DNA from: Candidatus Thorarchaeota archaeon
Lineage (GTDB): Archaea; Asgardarchaeota; Thorarchaeia; Thorarchaeales; Thorarchaeaceae
Length of the DNA stretch: 25,766 nucleotides
Direction: 5' to 3'
NCBI GenBank assembly: GCA_016839605.1
Contig: JAEOTX010000045.1
Location: 1-25,766, forward strand
The first letter of the stretch is position 1. The number at the start of each line of letters is the position of its first letter. The notes under the pieces were generated by a model. It worked only from the letters and a program-made list of their open reading frames with translations, had not been told where the DNA came from and ran no database searches. Position numbers and translations under genes: made by a program. This document shows, piece after piece, positions 5,001 through 16,796 of this stretch.

Positions 5001-6350
5001 TCACAGCACCAGCTCGCCGCGTGCCTTCGCCTCACTGATTTTAATCATTCTTCTCACACGTCGGTCAATAGTCCATTTCCATATGCCAAATGTGACTCCA
5101 ATTGTAGCTATCAACCCAACCAATCCTAAAACTGTATACCATCCGAAAGGAAAGTGTATGACGAAATCTGGAAGAGGTCCGACAATGAAATATGGCCAAT
5201 TCACAGCTACGCCAAAAGCATACAGGAAACCCACAATAGTCAGTTCTTTTAGATAACCAATCTTGTGTTCATCCTTTTCAAATAGGAAAATTGCAGGACC
5301 TAACCAGAAGAGGTACCAGGGCATCTCCCATCTGAACACGAAAAGGACTGCAGGAAGCATGTAGATGTAGAGGGGTTTGAGAAGCTGAATCTTTCCTAAC
5401 AATGATGCTGTCCGGAAGGCCTCATTTTCTGGGAGATATAGCCGAATCGTAAAGAGCATGAAACCGACATATATCAGAAGGGGGATGATTGCAGGTGGCC
5501 AAGGATAGCTACCAACTACAATGCTATTCTCGACAATGGGAGTGTTTGAGAAGAGGCCTGGGTACATGGGATTTACTATGTACGAGCTGTAAGTGGATGT
5601 ATTGAGGAAGTGATTCACCAAGGAGCTGAAGTCAACATTCAGAAATAGAAATGGGATGACCGTCAGCAAGGTGGAAACAAGGAACCAAATAATCGACACT
5701 GGAGCTGCGAGGAACAATATGGGTAGTGCGACTACAGAATATATCTTGGTCTGGACAGAAAGGCCTAGGGCAAACATACCCTTGCCATATTGTTTCTCTT
5801 GGAGCAGAACCAATGACATGAGAAAGAGGCAGTCTACAATGGGCTCTAGCTTTCCTCCACCTGCAGACATAATGAGACCATAGACATAGTATCCAGTGAA
5901 GAAGAACCGTGCCCACTGCTTCTTGAAGATGCGATCACCCAAGAGAATCGCAACTAGAACAAGATTCAGGTTGAACACCAAGGTCAATAGGAAGTTCAAC
6001 CATAACGGCTGCAAGCCACCTTGTCCTGGAAATAACCACGTAGCTATAGCAAAGAAGACCAGCCCAAATACGGGATATTCGTAGGTGATGTTTCCCAGGT
6101 AGTCGGGAAGCACATGGTCTTCGTCATTATATCCCCACTCCGGTGGCAGGGCTGCAGCAAGTTCGTGGTCATTCATCTCATAGATTTCGAATCCATATAT
6201 CCAGAAAGCTTCACCATACATCTCGTTTCGGTTTCGGTCACGTTCAATGACCAAGTAATTTGCAAAGGGGATGGCGATCATAGAAATTATCAAGCTCAGC
6301 ACAAGCTCTCGTCGGAATCTCCAAATTGTGATTGAGATTGAACGGAGCAT
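5001..6350 (-). CDS. Multi-TM GT-C-fold glycosyltransferase (GT87/DUF2029-like)
   Basis: N-terminal TM, acidic external loop, YEYP, TKIY and PWYLFW motifs, and about 10-11 TM segments. Likely start ATG 6350 after a GGTGG SD (track start 6362). Confidence 0.6.
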   Translation of the reverse strand: MLRSISITIWRFRRELVLSLIISMIAIPFANYLVIERDRNRNEMYGEAFWIYGFEIYEMNDHELAAALPPEWGYNDEDHVLPDYLGNITYEYPVFGLVFFAIATWLFPGQGGLQPLWLNFLLTLVFNLNLVLVAILLGDRIFKKQWARFFFTGYYVYGLIMSAGGGKLEPIVDCLFLMSLVLLQEKQYGKGMFALGLSVQTKIYSVVALPILFLAAPVSIIWFLVSTLLTVIPFLFLNVDFSSLVNHFLNTSTYSSYIVNPMYPGLFSNTPIVENSIVVGSYPWPPAIIPLLIYVGFMLFTIRLYLPENEAFRTASLLGKIQLLKPLYIYMLPAVLFVFRWEMPWYLFWLGPAIFLFEKDEHKIGYLKELTIVGFLYAFGVAVNWPYFIVGPLPDFVIHFPFGWYTVLGLVGLIATIGVTFGIWKWTIDRRVRRMIKISEAKARGELVL

Positions 6351-6407
6351 GATTGTTACCACCAGAATCTTCAGTCGCGGGTCACAGTGGCCCGCTTCTC
6401 GAGGGCC

Positions 6408-11143: not shown

Positions 11144-11482
11144 TTAGCGTGCCCCAAGATATGATTTGATGTCGTCAAGAACTTCTTTCTGTAAACGAAT
11201 GACGTCGTGGACTTCAATCTCCTCGGCCTCTTTCACAACCGAGTTCAACTGCACTACAGTGCCAACCGTTTCGACCTTGGCAAAATCGACTGGGAACTCC
11301 ACTTCAGCGCCCTTTACAATCAGTTCTGAGCGAGTTGGATGTATTGCGATTCTGATGCTGCGAACAATCCCAATCCTGCGTGCCCTACTGTCTAAGACTT
11401 CCTTACCCAACAGCCTACCAGGCATGCTCAGTTCATATAACTCAGCTTCGATAGTTGGGTTTGGCTCACTACTTGTCATCAC
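11144..11482 (-). CDS. PRC-barrel domain protein (possibly CdpB-like)
   Basis: LLGKEVLDSRARRIGIVRSIRI...PVDFAKVETVGTVVQL is the PRC-barrel signature, followed by a C-terminal helix; GTAGGAG SD. Confidence 0.8.
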   Translation of the reverse strand: MMTSSEPNPTIEAELYELSMPGRLLGKEVLDSRARRIGIVRSIRIAIHPTRSELIVKGAEVEFPVDFAKVETVGTVVQLNSVVKEAEEIEVHDVIRLQKEVLDDIKSYLGAR

Positions 11483-11509: not shown

Positions 11510-11538
11510 TAGGAGTCTTTTTAGACCGAGTATTATCA
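11510..11538. repeat. 29-bp motif, copy 1
   Basis: TAGGAGTCTTTTTAGACCGAGTATTATCA; 25/29 identical to copy 3 and 23/29 to copy 2. Confidence 0.85.
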
Positions 11539-11572
11539 AGAGGCGGTCATTTTACCAAACCGTAAAATCCTG

Positions 11573-11601
11573 TAGGAGGATTTTTACAGTGAGTATTGTC
11601 A
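11573..11601. repeat. 29-bp motif, copy 2
   Basis: TAGGAGGATTTTTACAGTGAGTATTGTCA; 63 bp from copy 1 and 24/29 identical to copy 3. Confidence 0.85.
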
Positions 11602-11684
11602 GCCAAGTGTTGCTTCATCCATCATACAATACTATTCAATGCAAACATCAGCACTGTTCGAGTGTCGAATAAACATCTGCTTTC

Positions 11685-12965
11685 TCAAATGAACAACACG
11701 AAGAGCACGATATAGATTGAGCAGAGTGCAATCTGAATGATGTTCACCAGTATCGCAATGATGAGGAATTTGCGCCATGACATTTTTGAATCTTTAAAGT
11801 TAACCATCGATAAAACTATCAATGGCACTGAACCAAACGGTGCTGCTACGCCACCTAGAGCGGCCCCAAATCCTACCCCCCAGAATAATGGATCACGTAT
11901 ACCGATAGGCCAACCCATGACCGTGGCCACATCGATGGCAAGGGGTGCAAAGACCGTGGCTATGGGTGGACCACCAATAATGAAGGTTCCAGCCCAAGCT
12001 CCCAAGAGTAACATCAAAGATGCAGGAATTAGTTGTCCGCCGCTTGCTGAAATAATGACGTCTGAAATAACGGTCAGAATTCCGACAAGTTCCAATGCTC
12101 CTGACAGAATGAAGAGCCCACCGATGAAAAAGATGATGTCCCATTCTATATCGCGAAGACTTGTCCGGGGTTCAGAGTGACTGACCGTCATGAAGACAGT
12201 CATCCCCCCAATAGCGACAACATACGGTTGAGGAAATAGGACAAAGGCAGCAATTAGCAGAACAAAGAGTCCTGCGTATACCCAAAACAGTCGTCGATTT
12301 GGCACCATCATCCAGGGGTCCAAATCCATCAAACGATCATATGCCTTTGGATCGACAGCAGTCAGTTGACTACGAATCATGTAGTAAACAGCGACTAGTG
12401 ATACTGCAATCACTAGTAGTGCAAATATCCCAAAACGTGTCATGTAATAATCGAATCCGAATCCTGCGTAATCGGCAATGATGATATTTGGTGTAGTGCC
12501 AATCAAAGTGAACGCACCACCAGCACCAACTGCTAACAGTTCTCCGAGGAAGAATCCATGCGGCTTAATCTCGAGTGCATAGCACGTTAGAATCACTAGA
12601 TATCCCATAATCAATATTACAACAGAATTCAGCAACACCGTCGATAAAAGAGCAGTCAGTAAAAAGAAGATTACAAATAGCTTCTTTGGATTTCCTCGTG
12701 TCAACCGGACAAAATATACTGCAAGAAACTGAAAGACGCCTGCCCCACGCATCACCTCAGCAACTACTGTCATTCCGGTAATAACAAGAATCGGCTCTAA
12801 ACGTATCATTGCTAAGATTTCTTGATCTGAAAACCCATTCATGATAAGAGCAATTGATGCTAATACTGCCCCAAATAATGCGGCTGATGTATGATGAATC
12901 ACCCGTGCTGCAATCAACAACACGGTAAGGAGGAAGATTATCAGAATCAGCAGCCATAGCTCCAC
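11685..12965 (-). CDS. ArsB/NhaD/SLC13 (P-protein-like) ion-transporter superfamily permease
   Basis: About 11-12 TM segments, GGAFTLIGTTPNIII, IEWDIIFFIGGLFI and ALGG motifs. Confidence 0.85.
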   Translation of the reverse strand: MELWLLILIIFLLTVLLIAARVIHHTSAALFGAVLASIALIMNGFSDQEILAMIRLEPILVITGMTVVAEVMRGAGVFQFLAVYFVRLTRGNPKKLFVIFFLLTALLSTVLLNSVVILIMGYLVILTCYALEIKPHGFFLGELLAVGAGGAFTLIGTTPNIIIADYAGFGFDYYMTRFGIFALLVIAVSLVAVYYMIRSQLTAVDPKAYDRLMDLDPWMMVPNRRLFWVYAGLFVLLIAAFVLFPQPYVVAIGGMTVFMTVSHSEPRTSLRDIEWDIIFFIGGLFILSGALELVGILTVISDVIISASGGQLIPASLMLLLGAWAGTFIIGGPPIATVFAPLAIDVATVMGWPIGIRDPLFWGVGFGAALGGVAAPFGSVPLIVLSMVNFKDSKMSWRKFLIIAILVNIIQIALCSIYIVLFVLFI

Positions 12966-13093
12966 TTTGGTTCACATACATCAAATTGCTTGGCTCTACG
13001 AACAGGCTTTGAGCTATTCAAATTTGTCTTCTTGATGTTTGTATTCATAGTAGACTAACTTTCTCTGCGAGTATATCGATGGGCAGAAAACCA

Positions 13094-13122
13094 TAGGAGT
13101 CTTTTTACATTGAGTATTAACA
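13094..13122. repeat. 29-bp motif, copy 3
   Basis: TAGGAGTCTTTTTACATTGAGTATTAACA in the permease/hef divergent intergenic region. Confidence 0.85.
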
Positions 13123-13155
13123 CTGTAAGTTAGAAACAACCTATTCTATGGAGCT

Positions 13156-15474
13156 TTGGTGTTGGCTAAGAACGAGACCTACGTGAATGAACCAATGATA
13201 CGCAAAGATAGTGTTGATTATCGAGCGTATCAGGTTAATCTTGCTGAGGTCGCTGTCAGAGAAAGTACGATGGTAGTTCTTAGCACAGGCTTGGGAAAGA
13301 CTGTGATTGCAGCGTTAGTGGCTGCAGTGCGTCTGACTCAAAATCCAGACTCAAAGGTCCTGTTTCTGGCACCTTCTCGACCTCTTGTGGATCAACAGGC
13401 TCGGTATCTAAGGATGGTTCTGGATATCGATGCTGAACATGTAGTATGCATGACTGGGCATGACACCCCTGAGAACAGGCGCTCAATGTGGAGCGAGGCT
13501 AGAGTCTTCGTAATGACTCCGCAGGCTCTGCAGAATGATCTGGTACAGAGGAGCTATGGGCTCCAAGAGGTCTCTCTGATTGTATACGATGAGGCCCATA
13601 GGGGTGTGGGTAACTACGCATACACCTTCGTTGCAGAGCTATATGAGAAACAAGGAACGGACCAGCTGTCCCTTGGTCTCACTGCATCTCCAGGCCACAA
13701 GGCAGACCATATCAAGACAGTCTGTCAAAACCTCCGTCTTACTCGTGTTGAGGTCCGCACTGAGAAGAGCCCAGATGTACGTGATTACGTCGTATCGATA
13801 GATACTGATGTAAGATATGTAAGACTGCCTTCCGAGGTTGAGGTCCTAAAAGACATACTCTATGGTCTTCTCGAGGAATACAAGAAACCAATTCTGGAGC
13901 ATGGCTTCTCGTTACCCAGCAGCCGCCGATTGAGTAGAAGAGAGATTCTTAGAGTCCAGAAAGAGGTAAGGAAAGAGATCGGGTCTTATACCAAACCTCC
14001 TCGTAGCCTATTCTTAGTCATCAGGAATCTGACTGCAGCTCTCAGGCTCGTTCATCTCATTGAGTTCATTGGCACCCAGGGTCTCACACCGACTTATCGC
14101 TATATCCAAGGTATCTACGAAGAAGTCCGCCACAAGAAGAGCTCTAAAGGTGTCAAGGACCTGATATCAAAAGCAGAGTTTCGGCAGTTTGAGAATCTCC
14201 TGAAAGCCCTCATTGACAAGGGGCATCGACATCCCAAGGCAGATGCGATTCTCGAACTAGTGAACGAGCAGCTTTCAGCTAATCTGGATTCGCGTATTCT
14301 TGTGTTCACCAGGTTCCGAGACACTGCAATAGAGGTCGTGGAAACCCTAGAACAGCTGAGAGATGCAAGAGTTAGTCGATTTGTGGGACAGAGCTCCAGA
14401 CGTACGGACAAGGGGTTCAGCCAAAAGAAACAGGTCGAGGTTCTTGAGGGATTCCGCAATAATGAATTCAATGTCTTGGTGGCCACTCAGGTTGGGGAGG
14501 AAGGGCTTGATATTCCAGAATGCAACTTGGTTGTGTTCTATGACTGCGTACCATCGGTGGTTCCTTACATCCAACGTAGAGGAAGAACAGGAAGAAAGAC
14601 ACCTGGGCGTGTCGTAATCTTCGTAGCCAGAGGGACACACGATGAGTTCTATCACTGGAGTGTGATTAGTAAATTGAAGAAGATGCCAGATGCTCTAAAG
14701 GAAGCCGAAAAGGACTCTGATGAAGAGCAGACTAGCCTAGAGGACTTTGTGAGTGAAGATGTGTCTGCGGACTCTTTCAAAGAGAGACCAAGACCGACAG
14801 GGGCTCCAAGTCCTTCCGATGACACGATCAGGATGATTGTTGATTCGAGAGAATTACCAACTGCTGTAGCCAGGGAACTTACTCGGCTAGATGTGGAGAT
14901 CTCAGGGGAGAGTCTGCAAATTGGAGACTACATAGTATCCGAGGATGTGGCAATAGAGAGAAAGGAATCGGGAGACTTCATTCAATCACTCATAGATGGT
15001 AGGCTCTTCGTGCAGCTCACAGCGCTACGCACGTCGTATCGGAGACCGGTCCTCATAATCGAAGGGGAGCAACTGATAGGACTACGCGCGGTGAACCCCG
15101 CTTCCATTTACGGTGCATTGGCATCAATTGCTATCCGGATACAAGTCCCCATCCTATGGACTCGAAATGCAGAAGAAACAGCAAATGTCCTCTATCGTTT
15201 AGCTCACTTAGAACAAGTGGGGGCAAAGAAGACGTTACGGACTAGGTCAGGGGATGCTAGAGGTACTGATGCAGAGGCACTGGAATATGTTCTGTCTGGA
15301 TTCCCCGGTGTAGACACTGTGATATCTAGGGCAATCCTGTCCGAGTTCGGGACTCTGGAGGAGGTCTTCTCAGCCAGCGAAAAAGATCTTCAGAGCGTAA
15401 AAGGAGTAGGAAAGAAGATTGCTGGTAGAATCAGACGGCTTCTGACAACAAGATATCCCTCCCACAAAGAGTAG
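13156..15474 (+). CDS. hef: Hef helicase/nuclease (FANCM/XPF-ERCC4 family)
   Basis: STGLGKT, DEAH, TASP and QRRGRTGR motifs; ERCC4 domain VDSRE...GDY...ERKESGDF; tandem HhH. Start is TTG/GTG at 13156-13162 after GGAG. Confidence 0.95.
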   Translation: MVLAKNETYVNEPMIRKDSVDYRAYQVNLAEVAVRESTMVVLSTGLGKTVIAALVAAVRLTQNPDSKVLFLAPSRPLVDQQARYLRMVLDIDAEHVVCMTGHDTPENRRSMWSEARVFVMTPQALQNDLVQRSYGLQEVSLIVYDEAHRGVGNYAYTFVAELYEKQGTDQLSLGLTASPGHKADHIKTVCQNLRLTRVEVRTEKSPDVRDYVVSIDTDVRYVRLPSEVEVLKDILYGLLEEYKKPILEHGFSLPSSRRLSRREILRVQKEVRKEIGSYTKPPRSLFLVIRNLTAALRLVHLIEFIGTQGLTPTYRYIQGIYEEVRHKKSSKGVKDLISKAEFRQFENLLKALIDKGHRHPKADAILELVNEQLSANLDSRILVFTRFRDTAIEVVETLEQLRDARVSRFVGQSSRRTDKGFSQKKQVEVLEGFRNNEFNVLVATQVGEEGLDIPECNLVVFYDCVPSVVPYIQRRGRTGRKTPGRVVIFVARGTHDEFYHWSVISKLKKMPDALKEAEKDSDEEQTSLEDFVSEDVSADSFKERPRPTGAPSPSDDTIRMIVDSRELPTAVARELTRLDVEISGESLQIGDYIVSEDVAIERKESGDFIQSLIDGRLFVQLTALRTSYRRPVLIIEGEQLIGLRAVNPASIYGALASIAIRIQVPILWTRNAEETANVLYRLAHLEQVGAKKTLRTRSGDARGTDAEALEYVLSGFPGVDTVISRAILSEFGTLEEVFSASEKDLQSVKGVGKKIAGRIRRLLTTRYPSHKE

Positions 15475-15485
15475 GAGGAGGAATC

Positions 15486-16205
15486 TCAGTAGACATCAGG
15501 GTTCTTACTGAGCCCTTCCTTGTATGCTTTTCGGAATCTGTCTGTGAGTTCCTTGCTCAGCTTCTGATAGCGTTCAAAATCTGAATCACTTAGTTTGGCA
15601 AGGCAGAGGATTCTCCTGAGAGCGAGGTAGACTCCGGGATCCATCGCAGAAGCAGCATCCAAGATCTCCTTCACTTCCACCCTTGCTTTCTTCCAAAGGC
15701 GGTCGCGTTCAACGAAGTCCTCGGCTATCTCCTGAATCTCATTCTCATCCTTGAAAATGAACCCTAGGCCACGCATAGTGCCAACTAGGTCGAGTGTCAT
15801 GTCAATTCCATTAACGGTTCTCTCAGGGAGAACATCCATGTCACTTGTTGCGATAAAGACGTTCTCAGCTGCTGCAACCCATAGTTTTGTCATAATATGA
15901 GAGTCGCCATTTCCAGTAGGCGCAACCCCATCCTGGATGATAAGCCCAGCCCGCTCCAGCTCCTTCAAGTGATAGCGGACGGTCTGGGGTTTCAATTCTT
16001 TGCTTGGATCAACATCATCTAAGAATTCGCAAATCTCGGATGTTGACATACGCTTGGACCTGAGAGCATGGAGGATTCGCCGGCGATTCTCGTCGTTTAG
16101 AGCACGGACTACTGCTGCAGTCTCTTCTTCACCAGCTACAATCCTAAGCGTTTCCATCTCTTCAGACTCCATCAATGGATAGTTCATTCTTGTTCCATGG
16201 CCCAA
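15486..16205 (-). CDS. ArsR-like winged-helix transcription regulator with C-terminal helical domain
   Basis: ALNDENRRRILHAL...PQTVRYHLKELERAGLI. The real start may be 16187 or 16172. Confidence 0.8.
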   Translation of the reverse strand: MGHGTRMNYPLMESEEMETLRIVAGEEETAAVVRALNDENRRRILHALRSKRMSTSEICEFLDDVDPSKELKPQTVRYHLKELERAGLIIQDGVAPTGNGDSHIMTKLWVAAAENVFIATSDMDVLPERTVNGIDMTLDLVGTMRGLGFIFKDENEIQEIAEDFVERDRLWKKARVEVKEILDAASAMDPGVYLALRRILCLAKLSDSDFERYQKLSKELTDRFRKAYKEGLSKNPDVY

Positions 16206-16329: not shown

Positions 16330-16572
16330 CTATGCGGGGACGTAAATCCACTGACGCATGTCCTGCAGACATGGTACTCTCTTGATTAGTTGCTTCTTGA
16401 GGAGCTTTCTAAGTGCGTATCTGACAGTTCTGGGTGCAAAAGACACCTTGTCCAGGAGTTGCTTCGGCGTAACACCGTTTCTCCCACTGCTTCGGAGAAT
16501 GTCCAATACGATCATCTGACTCTTTGTGAGCTTCAGTTCCTTAAGCTCCTCTCTTAGTTGTTCATCTGACAT
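16330..16572 (-). CDS. Small MarR-like winged-helix DNA-binding protein (RTVRYAL...DxRQ family)
   Basis: LTKSQMIVLDIL...PRTVRYALRKL...DMRQWIY. Likely start ATG 16572 after an AGGTGA SD (track start 16644). Confidence 0.8.
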   Translation of the reverse strand: MSDEQLREELKELKLTKSQMIVLDILRSSGRNGVTPKQLLDKVSFAPRTVRYALRKLLKKQLIKRVPCLQDMRQWIYVPA

Positions 16573-16796
16573 CAATTCGATATCACCTACTTCCGTTCGT
16601 TTGGTTGAAGCCAACAGAGTTCTCAATCTTGCTTCAATCAACACCTAATTATTTGTACAATAAACTATATTAATGTATCGCAGCCTTGGGTTGTATGTCG
16701 CGGTCTATCACCGCGTTAAGGTGTTCCGCGCGGTACACTCCTAGAACATCCGACAAACTCTATAACGAGGTATACTAACTGAAACCTCGAACCTCC

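Follow-up and report, generated by a model that had tools for sequence, protein, structure and literature searches.

A conserved 29-bp block between a PRC-barrel-like gene and hef in Thorarchaeota is probably a promoter-region element reused as an integration site

Comparative analysis of a 25,766-nt stretch of Thorarchaeota DNA (the window; contig C196 of assembly G000, which comprises 3.08 Mb in 259 contigs and is about 80% complete) showed that a 29-bp block present there in three copies is a single Thorarchaeota element specific to one locus, where it usually occurs once and is strongly conserved. The reading that we consider probable as a whole is that this conserved promoter-region block has been reused as an integration site, with the copies in the window being insertion scars. 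The copies and the features around them are as follows.

11144-11482, minus strand: PRC-barrel-like gene, 112 aa, ATG at 11479; leftward partner of the element.
11510-11538, plus strand: copy 1, adjoining the PRC-like gene; attL position; full consensus; T5A box at 11518-11523.
11539-11572, plus strand: spacer of 34 bp between copies 1 and 2.
11573-11601, plus strand: copy 2, internal; no gene start beside it.
11685-12965, minus strand: CitMHS-family permease (Pfam CitMHS, 5.9e-47); cargo of the inserted block.
13094-13122, plus strand: copy 3, adjoining hef; attR position; T5A box at 13102-13107.
13156-15474, plus strand: hef, with helicase, ERCC4 nuclease and HhH (Pfam); rightward partner of the element.
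15486-16205: wHTH gene beyond hef, ArsR-type.
16330-16644, minus strand: wHTH gene beyond hef, MarR-like.

All three copies share the pattern TAGGAG-N2-TTTTTA-N-A-N2-GAGTATT-N2-CA, in which TTTTTA is the T5A box. Pairwise identities counted on the sequences are 23, 25 and 24 of 29 (23/29 for copies 1 and 2), and none of 100 dinucleotide-preserving shuffles matched the pattern, the chance expectation being no copies. The flanks of the three copies are unrelated, with the likeness ending abruptly at the edge of the 29-bp block. Copies 1 and 2 are spaced 63 bp start to start, while copy 3 ends 33 nt before the start of hef (13156), its other end lying 128 nt from the start of the permease (12965). 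An earlier note on this DNA had described three intergenic copies in one orientation; we recovered all of them at the same positions on the plus strand. The invariant pattern and the 23-25/29 identity that it reported were reproduced by direct count, and its copy spacings and distances to genes agree with our recomputed values. Scanning the entire window with Rfam (E up to 1) and for tRNAs returned no matches, and folding of the copies with their leaders on both strands gave no significant RNA structure (z -0.2 to -1.7). Pairing of CUCCUA/UAGGAG with the ribosome-binding site of the PRC-like gene was dismissed as trivial, both being SD-like. An origin-recognition box was likewise rejected, because the block occurs once per genome and bears no visible likeness to such a box.

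In 77 Thorarchaeota and three Odinarchaeota species, the PRC-like gene and hef adjoin each other in divergent orientation. The family gene order runs PAPS-reductase/PUA, AOR, DeoC, PRC-like gene (leftward), hef (rightward) and then, family-wide, an ArsR-type HTH gene, a MarR-like wHTH gene and a nucleotidyl transferase. The PRC-like protein is 79-97% identical across the 77 Thorarchaeota species and 56-61% identical to its Odinarchaeota counterparts. Searches of the 112-aa protein against Pfam and NCBIfam gave no match. A profile search yielded a weak match to PDB 1pm3 (MTH1895; E 0.003), which we take to have a PRC-barrel fold, and a neighbouring Atlas cluster (score 0.97) is named PRC-barrel, with PF05239 in 33% of its members. 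The AlphaFold model (pLDDT 42) was too poor for a structure search. The label "PRC-barrel-like" is plausible from these matches, and a role of the protein in cell division is purely putative. The MarR-like wHTH protein (16330-16644, minus strand) is 79-96% identical across the family and has a match to the Rpc34 subunit family of RNA polymerase as well (PF05158, E 8.9e-8). Elsewhere in the window, positions 5001-6362 (minus strand) encode a 453-aa protein without a Pfam match, which is syntenic in several relatives at 64-68% identity.

Analysis of the family revealed that the element belongs to this locus. In a survey that located copies within 1.5 kb of the PRC-like gene, the motif (at most 3 mismatches) was found between the PRC-like gene and hef in 57 of the 77 Thorarchaeota species, the commonest state being a single copy about 28-60 nt from either start codon. 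Mean information reaches 1.75 bits per position in the block, in comparison to 0.42 and 0.18 in the flanks. Positions outside the selection criteria are near-invariant as well, namely the preceding base (G, 56/57), position 8 (C, 56/57) and position 26 (A, 57/57). Among metagenome contigs that match the core pattern exactly, 31 of 33 carry the PRC-like/hef locus; within family f1, motif matches fall on one contig per genome, and the 16 of these loci that were examined all proved to be the PRC-hef locus. Deep-branching species retain just the PRC-side half of the motif, at a fixed place, and in the three Odinarchaeota the PRC-like/hef gap lacks the Thorarchaeota motif. The Odinarchaeota loci (L124-L126) have a conserved AT-rich block of their own in this gap, upstream of position 1501, which is unrelated to the Thorarchaeota motif.

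The earlier note had interpreted the copies as an operator co-regulating hef, the PRC-like gene and the permease within a wider repair/division regulon, and had proposed a motif scan of the genome and its relatives. Fixed blocks with mismatches between them, together with the strong conservation, do suit protein binding, and two wHTH genes just past hef are kept in all relatives. Scanning the whole assembly with the pattern at up to 5 mismatches returned the three copies and noise, the counts of two half-patterns equalled those of reversed controls, and an nhmmer profile derived from 58 orthologous copies recovered the three copies (E 1e-7 to 3e-4), with the next best hit at E 2.1. No further copy, half-motif or profile match was thus present in the roughly 80%-complete genome, and the relatives carry the motif at the PRC-hef locus only. 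With a single locus throughout the 77 species and the metagenome contigs (31/33), and with the permease being a variable insert rather than a conserved member, we regard such a regulon as very improbable. On contig C211 of the same assembly, a 26-nt look-alike (C211:5975-6000) between two divergent genes agrees with the copy-1 type at 20 of 26 positions. It was discarded as a further copy, being at about chance level in 6 Mb and missed by the profile search.

Evidence for integration came from locus L144, where an 8.4-kb insert lies between two copies of the block. The first gene of the insert (L144:4984-5832), 47 nt from one copy, encodes a 282-aa Phage_integrase protein (Pfam Phage_integrase, E 1.4e-17; PHROG integrase, 1.7e-28), and most other ORFs of the element have no known family. 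L146 and L151 have integrases 97-99% identical to this one, again at 47 nt from a copy, and relatives 55-62% identical to it were found in L163 (35 nt from a copy) and in G016 (adjoining a copy). Across these five contigs, the integrase gene is thus 35-47 nt away from a copy. More distant relatives (26-52% identical; G089, G109, G018 and others) are not beside the motif. The motif-adjacent integrase of G016 (L033:5940-6777, minus strand) is frameshifted, with residues 1-45 and 46-260 in different frames, and the G016 element is probably defunct. Within the 8.4-kb element, L144:11936-12313 (plus strand) encodes a 125-aa protein with a match to the HMG box (PF00505, E 5.7e-6, 27.1 bits, cutoff 25.4), a eukaryote-type DNA-binding domain here on an Asgard mobile element. 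Searches of viral_contigs gave no match to the motif or to the integrase, and neither an excised circular form nor a free element turned up.

Comparison of empty and occupied sites delimited the core of the attachment site. The empty site in L077 reads PRC leader, block and amidohydrolase flank, with no element. In L140, a PRC leader and block identical to those of L077 are followed by element DNA, and in L146, element DNA is followed by the block and then by an amidohydrolase flank identical to that of L077. Both 60-nt flanks are identical between L077 and L140/L146, and the common core spans 27 bp (positions 1-27), with the final two bases of the block being element-type at attL and host-type at attR. 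Because an integrase family adjoins the copies, and because empty and occupied sites differ in this way, the block is identified, at the level of sequence, as the core attachment site of tyrosine-recombinase integrative elements, whose integration leaves a copy on either side. The integrase gene is placed relative to the element's copy much like the PRC-like gene relative to its own copy, and the element may use the same type of promoter for its integrase.

Every multi-copy genome, with two or three copies, has an insert between the PRC-like gene and hef that is bounded by copies; such copy-bounded inserts were observed in the window and in G004-G008, G013, G015, G016, L102, L144 and L150. The inserted genes at this position are diverse.

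CitMHS permease: G000, G004-G008, G010, G013 and G015; also a second clade with L099, L105 and L111.
Leucine-rich-repeat protein and tyrosine recombinase: G016.
324-aa membrane protein: G007.
Amidohydrolase: L077, L144, L146, L150 and L151.
Matrixin-type peptidase: L099.
258-aa protein of no known identity: L102.

The presence of the permease requires at least five gains or losses on the PRC+DeoC tree, and a comparison of the CitMHS tree with that tree is compatible with vertical descent plus losses and with transfer alike. Relatives that lack the permease carry a single copy, among them L047, the nearest relative (96% nucleotide identity); the earlier note had suggested checking whether such relatives have fewer copies, as support for insertion. 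In L031 (5000-5460), and likewise in G008 and G013, the PRC-side copy is separated from the end of the permease gene by about 500 nt that contain a further small ORF, and this stretch may represent a further insertion layer.

Comparison of the window with L047 and with intact elements suggested how the three copies arose. Copy 1 is identical to the single copy of L047, and homology between the two loci ends 4 nt past copy 1, at 11542, and returns only at 13227, inside hef. The spacer aligns with the first ~32 nt of the element left ends in L144, L140 and L157 at the same offset from the motif, with alignment scores equalled by 1, 14 and 13 of 2000 shuffles, respectively; resemblance of its 3' end to the element right end was not significant. 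Among 86 family genomes, it was found in G000, G005, G015 and G016 only. The spacer (11539-11572) is best described as a remnant resembling the left end of an element. Given a 29-bp repeat and a 34-bp spacer, copies 1 and 2 also have CRISPR-like sizes; a mini-CRISPR array is nevertheless so improbable as to be negligible, since the repeats are just 23/29 identical, the spacer is conserved across four species and looks like the end of an element, the genome has no array with the same repeat, and the block is single-copy in most species. Returning to the reading as insertion scars, the orthologue of copy 2 in G005 and G015 no longer has the T5A box and departs from the pattern at several fixed positions, from which we infer that copy 2 is a decaying relic. 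An insertion carrying the CitMHS permease, together with a 34-bp stub of an element end, would account for the three copies in the window.

The G000 assembly, including the window, contains no integrase of the L144 family, and that the permease block came from a mobile element is for that reason proposed by analogy. As the cognate integrase is gone from the window, the copies would now be fixed scars. The alternative offered by the earlier note, namely repeat scars or recombination sites from insertion of the permease, is borne out by the integrase family, the comparison of empty and occupied sites and the single-copy relatives. About 100 nt to the right of copy 3 (13123-13226), comprising the hef leader and the first ~24 codons of hef, could not be aligned to L047. 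Such a mismatch would not be expected from a clean site-specific insertion, and a larger segment may have been replaced by homologous exchange. In the window, the N-terminus of hef is of a type different from that of permease-free relatives, and the remaining hef is 90% identical to that of L047, which suggests that hef is a mosaic gene.

The position of the block and its pattern of retention point to a promoter function. The T5A box precedes the hef start by 54 nt and the ATG of the PRC-like gene (11479) by 44 nt; genome-wide, TATA-like hexamers are most frequent 55-65 nt ahead of starts and are broadly spread around that peak. In the hef-facing half, the T5A box is the sole AT-rich box. After duplication, PRC-side copies keep the T5A box plus GAGTATTAT; their positions 8-27 are kept in all species, with variation at positions 1-3 and 28-29. 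In hef-side copies, GGAG-N2-T5A is kept and the GAGTATT block drifts. Mismatches in GAGTATT per distinct sequence average 0.06 on the PRC side versus 0.92 on the hef side. A point against the promoter reading is that the TAGGAG block shows just a modest difference from side to side (0.94 versus 0.58). In L060, L064, L082 and L083, the two halves are separated; each adjoins the gene it belongs to and has an AT-rich box of its own. This side-specific retention after duplication fits two overlapping half-promoters, and we infer from the sequences that the block is the core promoter of both flanking genes.

In the mechanism that we propose, the T5A box would act as a TATA box, with the upstream GGAG-N2 serving hef and GAGTATTAT, on the other side of the T5A box, serving the PRC-like gene. 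The TATA box may be shared, or each AT-rich box may double as the proximal element of the other promoter; alternatively, ATAATA on the PRC-gene strand could be the TATA box of the PRC-like gene. In the window, copy 1 would drive the PRC-like gene and copy 3 would be the presumed core promoter of hef. Insertions would survive only where they restore the element on either side, as tRNA-targeting elements restore the tRNA.

A rival explanation holds that the block is an attachment site only, with repeated integration and excision resetting the core across species and no promoter role. This would suit the sharp edges of the conserved block, whose extent matches the att core, and the presence of the element's own copy beside its integrase gene. 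It is nevertheless improbable, for in most species a single copy stands without any element, the PRC-side half is kept at a fixed place in deep-branching species, and in several lineages the parts lost differ between the two sides while the internal copy decays. The different losses on each side and the decay of the internal copy indicate selection tied to the neighbouring gene.

A second rival retains the extra copies as scars and takes the block as a locus-specific operator for a dedicated regulator, for example of the ArsR or MarR wHTH type, overlapping the core promoter. The conservation between and beyond the TATA-like box exceeds that of usual basal promoters, and the wHTH genes are syntenic family-wide. 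The generic BRE signal of the genome is A-rich at -5 to -3 with C/G at -1, and the motif agrees with it at -4 and -1 only, a weak fit that counts against the core-promoter reading, so that a dedicated factor may be involved. The motif, however, is not palindromic and contains no clear direct repeat, and by eye nothing similar occurs near the wHTH genes, so that we judge a local operator of this kind unlikely. The promoter-region reading can also be extended, in that the block would be both a bidirectional promoter and a recombination site, making the PRC-like/hef gap a gene-capture platform. We consider this extension possible but doubtful. If it is true, each captured gene would land beside a working promoter copy and the integrase would be driven by the copy of the host promoter that the element carries. 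Rounds of integration and excision would then help to keep 27-29 bp identical where the proteins are only about 75% identical.

The probable reading, a conserved promoter-region block reused as an integration site, resembles several described systems in part. Archaeal integrated elements are known to use intergenic targets, to have att sites of comparable lengths and to integrate in tandem, as surveyed in Thaumarchaeota (PMC6563490). As in those attL/attR elements (PMC6563490), repeats here bound the insert, an integrase lies beside one repeat, an empty site exists in a relative, inserts are stacked at one site, and an att of 27-29 bp falls within the reported range. Unlike them, the target here is not a tRNA gene or the 3' end of a gene; it is a conserved block between divergent genes that resembles their core promoter, and the window is without an integrase. 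Bidirectional promoters with a shared TATA box and start sites about 50 bp apart have been described in Pyrococcus furiosus (PMC6640164). Similar to that BRE-TATA-BRE arrangement (PMC6640164), one AT-rich box here lies between divergent units with specific sequence on both sides, and the expected start sites would be about 50 bp apart. In contrast to it, the blocks beside the box are far longer and more conserved here, and the fit to the generic BRE is poor. As in integron cassette arrays, a tyrosine recombinase gathers varied genes at one site, each bounded by a repeated site, whereas hairpin-forming attC sites are absent here, the recombinase travels with the element instead of residing beside a fixed attI, and cassettes occur in both orientations. 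The known kind is therefore an attachment site with insertion scars, and what is unusual is a target that resembles a conserved bidirectional promoter.

These results remove a false lead, as no repair/division regulon is found at this locus, and an insertion hot spot explains the variable gene content between two conserved genes. We found no published description of this strongly conserved Thorarchaeota cis element, of the integrase/att pair with its precisely delimited core, or of this insertion hot spot. The element is a compact candidate for testing promoter architecture in Asgard archaea. To our knowledge, no genetic tools are established for Asgard archaea, and a native integrase with a 27-29 bp chromosomal target present in most Thorarchaeota may thus offer a starting point for integration vectors.
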